Origin: Escherichia phage MN04
Sequence record: MT129654.1
Strand: one strand, 5' to 3'
Length of the DNA stretch: 64,000 bases
The first letter of the stretch is position 1. Each line of letters begins with the position of its first letter. A program made the translations under genes and the position numbers. The notes under the pieces are model-generated. The model did no database searches and was not told the origin of the DNA. It was given only the letters and a program-made list of their open reading frames with translations. Positions 39,324 through 46,894 of the stretch are shown here, one piece after another.

Positions 39324-39397
39324 GGCCCTGTAGCTGGACGGTCAAGCGAGCGACTCATAATCGCTGGATGGTGGTTCGATTCCACCCAGGGCCACCA
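39324..39397 (+). tRNA. tRNA-Met (anticodon CAU; could be Ile2 if lysidine-modified)
   Basis: Perfect 7-bp acceptor stem, anticodon stem AGCGA/TCGCT with loop CTCATAA, T-arm GGTGG-TTCGATT-CCACC, encoded CCA. Confidence 0.8.
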
Positions 39398-39401
39398 ATT
39401 T

Positions 39402-39476
39402 GGATGTGTAGCTCAGTGGTAGAGCAGTTGACTGTTAATCAATTGGTCCATGGTTCGAATCCATGCATGTCCGCCA
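39402..39476 (+). tRNA. tRNA-Asn (anticodon GUU)
   Basis: Cloverleaf: D-arm GCTC/GAGC, anticodon loop CTGTTAA, T-arm CATGG-TTCGAAT-CCATG, acceptor with two G-U pairs, CCA. Confidence 0.75.
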
Positions 39477-39480
39477 AATA

Positions 39481-39556
39481 CGAGGCATAGCTCAGAAGGA
39501 AGAGCAACGGTCTTCTAAACCGTAGGTCGTAGGTTCGATCCCTACTGTCTCGACCA
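39481..39556 (+). tRNA. tRNA-Arg (anticodon UCU)
   Basis: Cloverleaf: D-arm GCTC/GAGC, anticodon stem ACGGT/ACCGT loop CTTCTAA, T-arm GTAGG-TTCGATC-CCTAC, CCA. Confidence 0.85.
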
Positions 39557-42023: not shown

Positions 42024-42053
42024 GTTTACAACCCTCAGAGGACGGGGTATAAT
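42024..42053 (+). promoter_or_regulatory. Early promoter (GTTTACA, 18 bp, TATAAT)
   Basis: Consensus hexamers; lies inside the N-terminal extension of track ORF 42022. Confidence 0.6.
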
Positions 42054-42738: not shown

Positions 42739-43284
42739 ATGAGTTTATATGATGACCTGATATCAAATGTTGGCTGGTTTAAAAATAGTGGTCTTTCCCA
42801 TGAAACTAATTCGGTTCTTTATAGAATTCGCCAAGACCTAGGTTATTCTAATGATTTCTTAAGTCGAACAAGTAGCAGCCGTGGATATACTACCAAATTA
42901 CCCTTTATCTTTGCTTTAGCTGAAGACCTTTCTTTTGCAGAAGCTTTAGAAATTATTGACGTAAATCTGGGTATTCAACGGGTGGAATTCGCTGGACTAC
43001 GTTATTCAGTATACTCTTTAAATGAACCAAGCGATTATAAACAGCTTGTTGATGCTGATGATGATTATCACTTGGTATGCTATTTGATGTTAGAAAACGG
43101 TGACCACTTTGGTATGGTCGACCGCCGTCCGAGTTATTCGGATATAAAAAACTATGATAAAGATGAGCTTATTATTTTAGCCAACGAATACACATCAGAG
43201 AGTCGTAAACAGCAACGTAAACTTAATCGTTTTATTAAAGAATGCCGTGAATACGCTAAAGAGGTTCAAAATGGAGCGGCCTAG
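42739..43284 (+). CDS. Hypothetical protein
   Basis: 181 aa; GGAGGAGAGG RBS. Confidence 0.5.
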   Translation: MSLYDDLISNVGWFKNSGLSHETNSVLYRIRQDLGYSNDFLSRTSSSRGYTTKLPFIFALAEDLSFAEALEIIDVNLGIQRVEFAGLRYSVYSLNEPSDYKQLVDADDDYHLVCYLMLENGDHFGMVDRRPSYSDIKNYDKDELIILANEYTSESRKQQRKLNRFIKECREYAKEVQNGAA

Positions 43285-43624
43285 TCTTGCATCACATGTT
43301 TATCAATTGGCTGAATATAATATTGGTGACAATTTATTATTAGGGATTGCCACCGGTATGCTTGGTGGTTTGGTTGGTCTGGTAATGACCACGGTTATGG
43401 CTGCAATCGAAGGAGTCATGCCCGTTGAGATGGGTTTCTATATGATAATCGCTCCGGCTGTCGTGGCTTATTTTATCCCTCTCGTGTATGATATTTGCCA
43501 TACAAATGCTTTGAATGCTCCCATCCGTAAGAGATATGCTTTAGAGATGGCTAATTATAATGAGTATGTAAAACAAACCAAACGTAATGACCTTGAAACC
43601 TTTATTAAGGAATGTAAATCATGA
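43271..43624 (+). CDS. Small membrane protein (hypothetical)
   Basis: ATG 43271; two or three TM helices (LLLGIATGMLGGLVGLVMTTVMAAI...). Confidence 0.45.
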   Translation: MERPSLASHVYQLAEYNIGDNLLLGIATGMLGGLVGLVMTTVMAAIEGVMPVEMGFYMIIAPAVVAYFIPLVYDICHTNALNAPIRKRYALEMANYNEYVKQTKRNDLETFIKECKS

Positions 43625-43911
43625 ATAAAATTGAAATTGAAATCCCTGAATACAACGACGAGAAATCTGCAGAAAAAGCTATCTATGCTCTTCTGAATAA
43701 AGTAGATACCATCGAACATGAATGTGAAGCTATTGCCGATAAGTACGGTATTCAATTCGGAACAGGTGATTATGGCTCAGGACGTACATACTACCCCGTT
43801 GGTTATGAATGCTCACAGTGGTTTAAAGATGAAATTGAAAACAATGGTGGTGAAGTTGAAAATGGCGTCGTTACAGTTGGTGCCTGGGTCTCCTCTTCAG
43901 CATTATGCTAA
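43621..43911 (+). CDS. Member 1 of tandem small-protein family with W-V-S-S-S-x-x-C C-terminus
   Basis: 96 aa ending ...GAWVSSSALC; ATGA overlap with upstream gene. Confidence 0.55.
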   Translation: MNKIEIEIPEYNDEKSAEKAIYALLNKVDTIEHECEAIADKYGIQFGTGDYGSGRTYYPVGYECSQWFKDEIENNGGEVENGVVTVGAWVSSSALC

Positions 43912-43920
43912 GGAAACGCT

Positions 43921-44202
43921 ATGATGAATGATAATCATAACCACCCAGAGCTTCTGGCCGCAGTAAAAGAAATTCATGAAGCTATTCGTCGTGCCGAGGA
44001 AATTGCAGACAAATATGAGTCCCATTTTAATATATACCCTGCTCGCGGTATGGGCGGCGACTATTATTCTCCTGGTGCCTTGAAAGCTGACCTTGCCCAT
44101 TGGGAAGAAGATGGTCATCCTGAATGGGCTATTGTTAATACTCATGACTATACAACTGACCTGGAAAATGGTGGTTGGGTGTCCTCTTCTTCTGAATGTT
44201 AA
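43921..44202 (+). CDS. Member 2 of tandem small-protein family
   Basis: 93 aa ending ...ENGGWVSSSSEC; shares EAIADKY/EEIADKY with member 1. Confidence 0.55.
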   Translation: MMNDNHNHPELLAAVKEIHEAIRRAEEIADKYESHFNIYPARGMGGDYYSPGALKADLAHWEEDGHPEWAIVNTHDYTTDLENGGWVSSSSEC

Positions 44203-44211
44203 GGAAATATT

Positions 44212-44409
44212 ATGTCTCGTGAATTAGATTGTGCAATCCGAACTGCCGCCGCAGCTATTGAAAACGTTATCCAGATTTGTAAAGAAGAACGCGAAGAAGC
44301 TGATATCTATATCGATGGTGTTCGTGACTTAGAACGACATATCACGCTTTATAATGGTTGTATTACTATTAGTGGTACCTCTTGGGTATCATCCTCTTAC
44401 GAATGCTAA
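44212..44409 (+). CDS. Member 3 of tandem small-protein family
   Basis: 65 aa ending ...SGTSWVSSSYEC. Confidence 0.55.
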   Translation: MSRELDCAIRTAAAAIENVIQICKEEREEADIYIDGVRDLERHITLYNGCITISGTSWVSSSYEC

Positions 44410-44418
44410 GGTAATAAA

Positions 44419-44631
44419 ATGACTATTGATGAAATCGAAAAACAAATCCGTGAATTAGTACGTAAAGGCCAGTCCGTGGCTGACGAAACAGGTGAAGAGT
44501 TCCATGTTTCCGGACGTGGACAATACATTTCTCCAAAGAATCCGGAATATGATGATTACGAATGGGTCCGTGACGATTACGGTATCCCAGATGGTGAAGG
44601 TTTCTGGTTTACATCCTCTATGTCTTGCTAA
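44419..44631 (+). CDS. Member 4 of tandem small-protein family
   Basis: 70 aa ending ...GEGFWFTSSMSC. Confidence 0.55.
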   Translation: MTIDEIEKQIRELVRKGQSVADETGEEFHVSGRGQYISPKNPEYDDYEWVRDDYGIPDGEGFWFTSSMSC

Positions 44632-44642
44632 GGAATAAAAAA

Positions 44643-44867
44643 ATGACCGATATTGATGAATTAGAAAAAGCTGCCCTTGAACTGGCTGCCCTGTATAAGA
44701 AAGTAAAAGATATGGCTTCTGCTCAGGATTTTGGTGTTGAGCTAGATGATTATGACGGTGAAGTTCGTCTTGAAGATTGGCTGAATAGTTCTTGTTATGG
44801 TGAAGAAGCTGGTCGTACCTTCGTTGCTCGTCCCGATGGTAAAATCTGGTACCCGAGCTCATGCTAA
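44643..44867 (+). CDS. Member 5 of tandem small-protein family
   Basis: 74 aa from ATG 44643, ending ...GKIWYPSSC; TAAGGA stop-RBS junction as in other members. Confidence 0.5.
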   Translation: MTDIDELEKAALELAALYKKVKDMASAQDFGVELDDYDGEVRLEDWLNSSCYGEEAGRTFVARPDGKIWYPSSC

Positions 44868-45088
44868 AATTAAAGAAAAGATATATTCGTAAAATAAACG
44901 GTCTTCGTGATTATGCCAAAGGTTGGCCGTTAAGTATTATTATGGCCGATAGACACCCACGTTATAATACTGAGATGACTTATTACAAAAAGTATGATTC
45001 ATATTGTCGGTCTAAAGCTGGTCGTTTAGATGGTTCTTATGAAGAATATTTTGGCAAAAAACCTACTCGTATTTCGTTAGGAAAATAA
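44861..45088 (+). CDS. Hypothetical basic protein
   Basis: 75 aa; ATG overlaps upstream stop. Confidence 0.4.
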   Translation: MLKLKKRYIRKINGLRDYAKGWPLSIIMADRHPRYNTEMTYYKKYDSYCRSKAGRLDGSYEEYFGKKPTRISLGK

Positions 45089-45118
45089 TTTAACCACAAG
45101 GATGTGGTAGGAGGACTT

Positions 45119-45448
45119 ATGCACAAAGATTCAGTATTCAAATACCTTTTGAAAACAGATAAAGAATTCTATATGAATGGACAAGCTTTCTTGTTCATTC
45201 GTGGTAAACGTGAGATGTTTTATAAATGCGACCTCTCAATGCATCATCATATGTATCATACTCATGGTGAGCCTATACTAGGGTTTTCTGGTGACGAGAC
45301 TAGACGCATAGCTATGTACTACGACCATTTTAAGCTCAATGATTGTGGTGACAACGCTTTGGTCTGGAACCCGTCTTGGCGTCGTTGGGATACAGTAGAC
45401 AACGATAAATTATTTTTAGAATATTGCAGAAGTGATGTACAACTCTAA
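45119..45448 (+). CDS. Hypothetical protein
   Basis: ATG 45119 with AGGAGG RBS; 109 aa; His/Cys-rich. Confidence 0.5.
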   Translation: MHKDSVFKYLLKTDKEFYMNGQAFLFIRGKREMFYKCDLSMHHHMYHTHGEPILGFSGDETRRIAMYYDHFKLNDCGDNALVWNPSWRRWDTVDNDKLFLEYCRSDVQL

Positions 45449-45492: not shown

Positions 45493-45732
45493 ATGTGGTA
45501 TTACTCTCCACTGTCTGATAAGTCTGATGAGCCGGTACGAATTAGTCGTGCTAAGTTTAAAAAGATTTATGGCTTTGCCTATAAGAAGTCTGATTACGGC
45601 GTTCGTTTTGAAGATGCCCACTGTATCAATGACCCTTATGCAGAAGAAATCTCTAATGAGATAATTCCTATCATTAAGAATAATTCTGATGATATGTGGG
45701 AGTTGCATAACGATTATGTTGCTGAAATTTAA
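45493..45732 (+). CDS. Hypothetical protein
   Basis: 79 aa; GAGGAG RBS. Confidence 0.5.
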   Translation: MWYYSPLSDKSDEPVRISRAKFKKIYGFAYKKSDYGVRFEDAHCINDPYAEEISNEIIPIIKNNSDDMWELHNDYVAEI

Positions 45733-45753: not shown

Positions 45754-45921
45754 ATGTATAATGTTCTTATTGTTTTTGTTACTCACCCACAAGGTGGCGT
45801 AAGGCAGAATACTTCCCAAGTGGTCCAATTTTCTTCGGTAGAGGCTGCTAATCTAGCCGCAACGCGTATTGAAGCAAAAAAATCTGAACTGGGTAAATAT
45901 GAAGTAACTCGTCTTTATTAA
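45754..45921 (+). CDS. Hypothetical 55 aa protein (below ORF-track cutoff)
   Basis: GAGGAAAATATT-ATG RBS arrangement identical to the next gene; open to TAA 45919-21. Confidence 0.35.
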   Translation: MYNVLIVFVTHPQGGVRQNTSQVVQFSSVEAANLAATRIEAKKSELGKYEVTRLY

Positions 45922-45934
45922 TGAGGAAAATATT

Positions 45935-46894
45935 ATGATGTTAGTTATTGGTTCTCGTGCACTGCACCAAGCTGGTCTGATTGAAAGTAAGTATATCGAA
46001 AATTCTGATTGGGATTTCATTGCCGACCAAGGCTCATGGAATCACTTTAAAGCCCGGATGTTCGGCGCTCATGTTCCTGTGGATAATCCTGATGTCCAGG
46101 CCTTTAAATGTATGTACAATGGTAAAGAAACCTATTTTGAAGCTTATATCGTCCGTGCCCTGACTAACGTACGAGAAATCACCGGCGAGCTTCAGGACGA
46201 AGATTTCACCTCAAGTTATCGTCTCCTGAAATATGCCGAAAATCATATTAAAAAGGACCGTCTTACGGGTTTCTATTGGGCCACACCTGATATCTGTCTG
46301 GCCATCAAAATGAGCCATCGTTATCTGAAGAATAACCCTTTCTTTTTGAAGACGATGTCCCACATCAAATACCTTCGTAATAAAGGTGTAACCCTGAATG
46401 AAGAGCTCCAAGAAATCATGCTGCAACGTCAGAAAGAAACGTTGAGCTATTCTCATCCTAAATTGGATGTAAACAAATCATCATTCTTTAATGACACCAT
46501 TTATACGCTAGACCATGACTCTATCCACGAAGCTGTGGCATTGGCTGGACGCCCTGCATATACCTTTTATATGAAAGATGGTTCTGAAGTCATGACCTCA
46601 CGTGAGAAGTTTGAAGCTTTGCCTGAAGCTATTAAACTGGCTGGCGTATATGAAGAAACTTGTGTGTTGGCCCTAGAACGTTCACAGGTTCCTAATGACT
46701 TCAATATTTCACCATCATTAAGTTTCTATATGGCTCTTGAGAAAGTGTGTACCTCAATCACTTCAGGCTGGTTCCGCGAGTATGCCTGGGAAAACTACCA
46801 AGCTGTAGTGAATATGTATAAGACGCTAGGTGAAAATGACTACATCAAGCGATTCCAAGATAACCAACATTTAATTCGTCCTTTCACAAAATAA
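45935..46894 (+). CDS. Hypothetical protein with possible nucleotidyltransferase-fold motif
   Basis: 319 aa; 'VIGSRALHQAG...SDWDFI' resembles GS-x(n)-DxD NTase signature. Confidence 0.5.
   Translation: MMLVIGSRALHQAGLIESKYIENSDWDFIADQGSWNHFKARMFGAHVPVDNPDVQAFKCMYNGKETYFEAYIVRALTNVREITGELQDEDFTSSYRLLKYAENHIKKDRLTGFYWATPDICLAIKMSHRYLKNNPFFLKTMSHIKYLRNKGVTLNEELQEIMLQRQKETLSYSHPKLDVNKSSFFNDTIYTLDHDSIHEAVALAGRPAYTFYMKDGSEVMTSREKFEALPEAIKLAGVYEETCVLALERSQVPNDFNISPSLSFYMALEKVCTSITSGWFREYAWENYQAVVNMYKTLGENDYIKRFQDNQHLIRPFTK

Follow-up and report, generated by a model that had tools for sequence, protein, structure and literature searches.

Why should five consecutive small phage genes, whose products have divergent bodies, all close on nearly the same few residues with a Cys directly before the stop codon? 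The question is raised by an array at positions 43621–44867 of a stretch of Escherichia phage MN04 (MT129654.1), which we analysed over its full length of 64,000 nucleotides (nt) and refer to as the window. Our analysis points to a conserved phage module of two parts, with these genes as its small-protein component and a nucleotidyltransferase (NTase) encoded downstream at 45935–46894 as the other. All five lie on the + strand. Member 1 (43621–43911, 96 residues, isoelectric point (pI) 4.3) ends in ...GAWVSSSALC, with its tail codons at 43885–43908; member 2 (43921–44202, 93 residues) in ...GGWVSSSSEC (44176–44199); member 3 (44212–44409, 65 residues) in ...TSWVSSSYEC (44383–44406); member 4 (44419–44631, 70 residues) in ...GFWFTSSMSC (44605–44628); and member 5 (44643–44867, 74 residues from its ATG) in ...KIWYPSSC, a short form of the tail. 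A first-pass annotation made from the letters alone had listed five consecutive open reading frames (ORFs) with these lengths and C-termini, which match the sequence exactly; in all five, Cys is the last codon ahead of the stop.

That annotation had given the shared tail as W-x-S-S-S-x-x-C. The motif that the five hold in common is in fact W-x-x-S-S and then a Cys, either two residues further on (members 1–4) or immediately next (member 5), and we defined the tail family by a C-terminal W-x-x-S-S, zero to three further residues and a Cys directly before the stop codon, a definition that fits all five ORFs. Across the whole window, exactly five + strand ORFs of at least 30 residues starting with ATG end in this motif, and they are the five adjacent ones, a clustering far beyond chance. 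In 80 related loci, motif-ending ORFs number 203 on the + strand against 5 on the − strand. The long-form tails (n = 166) follow the consensus (E/D)-G-G-W-(V/I)-S-S-S-x-x-C, in which the Trp, the Ser three residues after it and the terminal Cys are invariant, while the position after that Ser is again Ser in 165 tails and Thr once. Among 139 distinct tail DNAs, the invariant serines are written with both TCN and AGY codons, which indicates that selection acts on the protein, and explanations at the level of a DNA repeat or an RNA were discarded, as neither a DNA tandem repeat nor an Rfam match underlies the array region.

Copies of the motif are not confined to the terminus. Many family members carry extra W-x-S-S(-G-C) repeats within acidic linkers, and member 5 itself holds an internal WLNSSC (44778–44795, followed by YGEE) besides the terminal WYPSSC (44847–44864). 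Since this double motif is kept in the Karamvirus, Marfavirus and Stephanstirmvirinae orthologues of member 5, a copy whose Cys is not terminal can be conserved. The terminal Cys is the only Cys in 86 of 144 family members. A few members end in Cys plus one residue (N, S, Y, W or R); metagenomic contig L012 (2588–4521) has four tail-family genes, two of which end in ...SSTHSCS and ...SSTNSCR, one residue past the Cys, and its enzyme appears split into ORFs of 169 and 138 residues.

The tail is the sole feature common to all five body types. Profile searches placed members 1, 2, 4 and 5 in PHROG 899 (E-values of 8e-23, 9e-19, 3e-14 and 8e-10, respectively) and member 3 in PHROG 4882 (2e-36); both are uncharacterised phage small-protein families, and in each case the match reaches the C-terminal end of the profile. 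Against Pfam, NCBIfam and PADLOC, the five array proteins gave nothing above noise. The earlier description of the array as paralogous is therefore borne out for members 1, 2 and 4 and, by profile, for member 5, while member 3 falls in a separate PHROG. With HMMER run in full against 1.84 billion representative proteins, the family grew to 296 representative clusters; of the best 149 new representatives, the tail is present in 144 and a final Cys in 137. PADLOC gave no match to the tail family as a whole. The family is thus real, and the invariant tail on divergent bodies that had been noticed in the window is kept across orthologues and distant relatives.

Member 2 is the top match in the window to the hidden Markov model (HMM) of the family (E = 2e-23) and represents its core type, in which an N-terminal helix ending ...IADExG is followed by a nearly invariant (A)YGMGG(T/S)YYP hairpin; in member 2 itself this family YGMGG motif reads ARGMGGDYYSP. 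These core features are altered in member 1 (YGSGRTYYP) and member 4 (GRGQYISP) and absent from members 3 and 5. Members 1 and 2 had been said to share E(A/E)IADKY, and (E)xIADKY is indeed present in both. In member 1 the layout is a helix, a GDYGSGRTYYP hairpin and then the tail. Its AlphaFold2 (AF2) model has a mean predicted local distance difference test (pLDDT) score of 90.5, with the helix at residues 14–42; the last block, comprising the last ten residues, scores 74 as compared to 92–97 in the body, which fits an exposed peptide. No match to the small-protein fold was found in the PDB, and searches of longer family members gave no Pfam hits, nor any domain in their N-terminal extensions. 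The array proteins are acidic (pI about 4.2–4.7), as is the family (median pI 4.5).

Each body type has its own history. Orthologues of all five types occur in other T-even genera at 39–65% identity: those of member 1 are 49–65% identical in Mosigvirus, Karamvirus and Marfavirus and 34% identical in Stephanstirmvirinae, and those of member 3 are 52–55% identical in RB69-like phages and Marfavirus. Types 1, 3 and 5 have matches of 31–37% identity in the unrelated Stephanstirmvirinae. Paralogues within a genome, by comparison, are 27–29% identical or alike in the tail only. The proposal that the array is a diversified effector set does not agree with such stable orthologues for every type, which instead argue for a fixed panel of distinct, old proteins.

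What the panel shares with its relatives elsewhere, besides the tail, is a neighbour. Among IMG/VR loci holding the enzyme encoded at 45935–46894, 75 of 80 have at least one tail-family ORF, and when enzymes are clustered at 70% identity the linkage extends to 25 of 26 clusters. The tail ORFs lie upstream of the enzyme on the same strand in 217 of 219 cases, with a median gap of 821 nt, and number from one to six per linked locus. The association also holds when approached from the other side, since distant metagenomic tail proteins have a DUF7275 gene just downstream on all seven informative contigs (an eighth, too short to judge linkage, was left out of this count). The same pairing recurs in Mosigvirus, Karamvirus, Marfavirus, Stephanstirmvirinae, Otagovirus (Pseudomonas), Twarogvirinae (Acinetobacter) and a jumbo Erwinia phage. 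We found no third gene family common across the enzyme clusters in the 80 loci. The tail family and a MenT-like NTase with intact catalytic residues are therefore in near-obligate gene linkage. With this, the idea that the tail is a recognition tag for modification moves part of the way forward: it gains a candidate reader, the co-encoded NTase linked in 25 of 26 enzyme clusters.

One of the enzyme loci without a tail gene is a probable deletion. In Gordonia, Streptomyces and Vibrio phages the enzyme has short, diverged homologues; these are without the NTase sheet and E69, and no tail gene lies near them. The jumbo Erwinia phage had been considered as an exception to the linkage; the neighbour in question there is a true PNKP, and the enzyme homologue lies ~3.8 kb downstream. 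Frequent neighbours of the enzyme include tRNA genes, RNA ligase, polynucleotide kinase (PNK) and PTH2, none of them consistently present, and they give a hint of tRNA or RNA-end biology. The distant enzyme relatives in Gordonia and Streptomyces phages adjoin tRNA clusters or an RNA ligase (loci L098 and L015).

The enzyme itself (+ strand, 319 residues, PHROG 2141) begins 1,068 nt past member 5, and the functional unit runs on to 46894, beyond the coordinates given for the array. It comprises an NTase lobe, matched by Pfam DUF7277 with 92.3 bits, and a DUF7275 region, matched with 264 bits, both passing the gathering thresholds (27 bits each). In structure it shows a bi-lobed MenT-type NTase fold with MenT1 as the best structural match, and by fold it is a MenT-like pol-beta-type NTase. 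The residues G6-S7, D25-x-D27 and E69 are invariant in DUF7277, as are K125, H128, K139, H194-D195, H198, E240, E241, E248, R249 and C272 in DUF7275. A partly overlapping set, E69, R129, R165, Y172, H174, C272, S277 and R281, is kept in at least 95% of tail-linked enzymes and replaced in three short homologues; these positions may offer a lead to a tail-binding site or surface. None of 32 enzyme-family members matched Pfam DUF1814/AbiEii at E-values up to 1, the enzyme matched neither the RlaP nor the CCA-adding families of Pfam at that same limit, and PADLOC returned no match; a weak match to RNase L/KEN (E = 0.11) was judged noise.

Enzyme homologues number more than 2,200 in metagenomes and are found in 733 of 50,697 sequenced phage records, with carriers among T-even relatives, phi92-like phages, Pseudomonas and Acinetobacter phages and jumbo phages. 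The names under which they were deposited are inconsistent, ranging over 'DefenseFinder protein', 'nucleotidyltransferase' and 'prohead assembly scaffold protein', with examples in Acinetobacter phage phi1_092060 (L016, 3662–4615) and Pseudomonas phage M5.1 (L013, 5004–5990); the 'prohead assembly scaffold protein' label (P0187, Klebsiella phage VAC36) is a clear mis-annotation.

Comparison with T4 gives a further view of the pairing. The array region of MN04 is 93–94% identical to the Dhakavirus genomes JS98, UP19 and JS10, and the window is that of a JS98-like Dhakavirus. In JS98 the array sits between homologues of e.6 and e.2, 3' of three tRNA genes. In T4, e.3 directly adjoins e.2, without an array at the syntenic junction. 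Scans of T4 by HMM and motif, which covered nt 1–74,000 including the syntenic e.3|e.2 locus, detected neither the tail family nor the enzyme. Two T4 proteins were considered as counterparts of the enzyme, nrdC.3 (308 residues; L105, 48933–49859) and nrdC.11, an annotated nucleotidyltransferase (L106, 5435–6445). Neither matches the enzyme HMM, and their failure against the DUF7277–DUF7275 profile means that no hidden copy of the module lies in this part of T4. The family had been reported as unfamiliar from T4, in agreement with its absence from the region scanned; the five genes did not prove to be ordinary members of a T4 e.x family, and the tail was not lost from orthologues, being retained there as well as in distant relatives.

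We consider the two-part module the best account of these data because the linkage runs in both directions, no third family is shared, both genes are missing together from T4 nt 1–74,000, and a set of enzyme residues is specific to tail-linked enzymes. We infer that the tail is the element by which the enzyme recognises the small proteins. Each small protein would consist of an acidic folded domain, with an N-terminal helix and a small sheet that includes the YGMGG hairpin in the core type, and of an exposed end, G-W-x-S-S-(x-x)-Cys-COOH, which the enzyme would read. The Trp could anchor the tail, the two invariant serines would sit at the catalytic D-x-D/E metal centre, and the thiol or carboxylate of the terminal Cys might be held by residues specific to tail-linked enzymes (R129, R165, H174, C272 and R281). 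A nucleotidyl or possibly a phosphoryl group would then be moved onto a tail serine, and in this way one enzyme could mark or switch a fixed set of one to six small proteins, each with a conserved body of its own by which it would act elsewhere.

That the tail serines are offered to the catalytic centre as acceptors, so that a fixed panel of proteins is marked, is the reading we favour, as a tentative one to which we give less than an even chance; some form of functional coupling between tail and enzyme is much more probable. The acceptor role is suggested by the hydroxyl-directed chemistry of the structural relatives, by the exposed tail, by the several partners per enzyme and by the internal motif repeats. 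Relatives in this fold family transfer phosphate onto an active-site Ser or Thr (PMC11375011). The internal W-x-S-S(-G-C) repeats are more easily explained by several acceptor sites than by a single plug. The physical contact, the modified residue, the chemistry and the downstream targets are all inferred. A broader version, in which the pair constitutes a widespread phage protein-tagging system, with a dedicated MenT-like enzyme modifying a universal tail on a panel of acidic effectors and so switching them on or off during infection, has a real chance of being true, though one well short of even.

Several observations weigh against the acceptor role. Two invariant serines together with an invariant Cys exceed what a single acceptor would need, so the tail may be a ligand and not a substrate. 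The large and highly conserved DUF7275 part of the enzyme gave no match to Pfam HD or other families. One phage group (L078, L079, L081 and L089) has the enzyme and no tail gene within 3.5 kb; in this L078 group, W279 of the enzyme is replaced by R and D193 by Q or E. Finally, the order of the genes, with small genes upstream, and MenT1 as the best structural match fit an inhibitor equally well. Under such a model the enzyme would be a MenT-type tRNA 3'-end NTase, acting against host translation or in tRNA-end repair, and the acidic proteins would be antitoxin-like regulators that bind its RNA groove with the Ser-Ser-Cys tail as a pseudo-substrate plug, inhibiting or timing the enzyme while remaining unmodified. 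The acidity of the small proteins suits this explanation too, and we regard it as nearly as likely as the acceptor role. One antitoxin should be enough, yet up to six distinct, conserved types are found per genome; the L078-type group keeps the enzyme without a nearby tail gene; the active site has D-x-D where MenT has its S/T-x-D phospho-acceptor motif; there is no Pfam match to DUF1814/AbiEii; and internal copies of the motif are hard to reconcile with a plug.

The remaining explanations give the tail another reader or another chemistry. It might be a short linear docking motif, by which adaptors whose bodies bind different targets (a host protein or an RNA) deliver them to the enzyme, or complete or activate its active site. 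A single invariant tail on five old, separately conserved body types, one enzyme with one to six small proteins, and repeated motifs that could recruit more than one enzyme molecule would all suit adaptors; we nevertheless think this improbable, as no binding domain is recognisable in the bodies, the longer members lack Pfam hits, and a pure docking peptide would not usually keep two Ser and a terminal Cys so strictly invariant. A conserved host machine might instead read the tail as a signal for degradation or targeting, as the first-pass annotation had suggested, or its thiol or carboxylate could be a metal ligand; synteny with the enzyme would then reflect shared regulation or an indirect link. 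The tail's terminal, exposed position in the model of member 1, the frequent lack of any other Cys (86 of 144 members) and the hosts, all Gram-negative Proteobacteria, agree with this. It leaves unexplained why phage families that are otherwise unrelated in this region have kept the enzyme, and no other gene, alongside the tail family and why both genes are absent together from the T4 region scanned, and the internal copies are not terminal; we hold it to be quite improbable. Least probable of all, and by our estimate very unlikely, is that the small proteins are precursors resembling those of ribosomally synthesised and post-translationally modified peptides (RiPPs), with the enzyme activating a serine and the Ser-Ser-x-x-Cys tail being dehydrated and cyclised, or its terminal Cys being made into a small molecule on the peptide scaffold in a pearlin-like manner. 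Several tandem precursor-like genes do adjoin one enzyme, and a Ser at position i with a Cys at i+3 is the typical lanthionine spacing. The pattern of conservation is reversed, however, with the would-be core (the tail) invariant and the rest varying; the short form S-S-C cannot make such a ring; the bodies are folded domains, judging from the model of member 1; and the conserved neighbours, whether in the 80 loci or in the window, include no dehydratase, cyclase, radical-SAM enzyme, protease or exporter.

Within the window, the genes between and around the two halves of the module bear on how it would be expressed. The stop-to-ATG spacers in the array are 9, 9, 9 and 11 nt. Every junction had been described as a TAAGGA fusion of stop codon and ribosome-binding site; this holds at the first, second and fourth internal junctions, and the third reads TAAGGT. 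Upstream, a hydrophobic ORF of 125 residues (43247–43624, + strand; PHROG 2330, with weak likeness to the membrane-protein PHROG 2203) is joined at its stop to the start of member 1 by an ATGA overlap, an arrangement that suggests translational coupling into the array; this ORF is not kept alongside the module elsewhere. At the other end, the next ORF begins at 44861, within member 5. The view of the array as one coupled operon therefore stands with respect to tight translational coupling and falls with respect to the limits of the operon, for the overlaps at both ends embed the array in a longer unit whose genes are coupled in translation. Four small + strand ORFs (44861–45088, 45104–45448, 45493–45732 and 45754–45921) lie between the array and the enzyme; they do not belong to the conserved module, since the enzyme clusters share nothing beyond the enzyme and the tail family.

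The best upstream sigma-70-like promoter match, TTTACA-17-TATAAT at 42025–42053 (+ strand, 11 of 12 positions), lies just before the e.6-like gene and, as a match to the consensus only, may serve the transcription unit as its early promoter. From there to the array, the sole terminator-like site on the + strand is weak and falls inside a coding region (43420–43435), and this near absence of terminator-like sites suggests that the genes are transcribed early and as one unit. On the same strand, ~4 kb upstream of the array, are three tRNA genes (Met-CAT, Asn-GTT and Arg-TCT, 39324–39556). The orthologue of member 4 is unannotated in the RefSeq record of JS98, where it falls in the gap between orf127 and orf126 (NC_010105, 65283–65492, − strand; L001, 8420–8629); its ORF is intact, with 69 residues ending in ...GFWFSSSMSC.

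Despite their wide spread, the two halves of the module are recorded as hypothetical proteins, and searches of the literature on DUF7275/DUF7277, RB69 ORF names, phage MenT-like enzymes and phage proteins with a C-terminal cysteine found nothing relevant. An eight-residue tail that is invariant over hundreds of divergent proteins and tied genetically to one enzyme amounts to a directly testable enzyme–peptide pair. Whichever model is true, a common piece of phage dark matter would gain a function, whether as an adaptor system, as a relative, carried by phages, of the MenT/AbiE toxin–antitoxin logic or as a new kind of protein modification. If the tagging reading is the true one, the pair would add a post-translational modification module that is new and has a peptide signal of its own. 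The tail could serve as a portable recognition tag, and the module might also be relevant to the ways in which phages deal with host defences directed at tRNA.

How, then, does this pair compare with systems already described? In the type VII toxin–antitoxin system MNT-HepT and in GlnD-PII, a pol-beta-type NTase covalently nucleotidylates a small partner on a hydroxyl side chain as a switch; there is one partner, modified at a tyrosine that lies in a defined loop. The module described here has several partners, all with the Ser-Ser-Cys C-terminal tail as the candidate acceptor. The antibiotic nucleotidyltransferases ANT(2'')/AadB and LnuA act on small molecules, have no partner proteins and lack the DUF7275 region. 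In tandem RiPP precursor arrays (lanthipeptides, pearlins), several small genes with a Ser/Cys C-terminus stand beside one enzyme, whereas in the present arrays the tail is invariant, the body is variable and folded, and maturation enzymes are not linked.

Jumbo phages encode the RNA-repair nucleotidyltransferases RlaP and CCA-adding enzyme (PMC7824862). The enzyme described here is likewise a phage-encoded member of the pol-beta superfamily, and several of its loci have RNA ligase, polynucleotide kinase, metallophosphatase, PTH2 or nearby tRNA genes; RlaP and CCA-adding enzymes, however, have no associated Cys-tailed small proteins, and RNA-repair genes are not consistent at the loci analysed here. 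The likeness to MenAT lies in the small gene ahead of the NTase, MenT1 being paired with the 68-residue antitoxin MenA1. The active site of MenT is S/T-x-D, with a Ser or Thr phospho-acceptor (T39 in MenT1, S78 in MenT3; PMC10435456, PMC11375011), whereas the present enzyme has a canonical D25-x-D27, an additional, highly conserved DUF7275 region and no DUF1814/AbiEii match. Membership of MenT/DUF1814 thus fails on sequence and on the active-site motif, though the fold matches. MenAT and AbiEi-AbiEii are, moreover, bacterial toxin–antitoxin loci, while the module occurs in virulent phages, with one to six partner genes that share an invariant Cys-terminal tail not reported for MenA1 or AbiEi. 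In the literature we found no described counterpart to a multi-copy partner set with an invariant Trp/Ser-Ser/terminal-Cys signature, and the nearest known logic is that of an NTase acting with a small partner, as in MenAT/AbiE, MNT-HepT and GlnD-PII.

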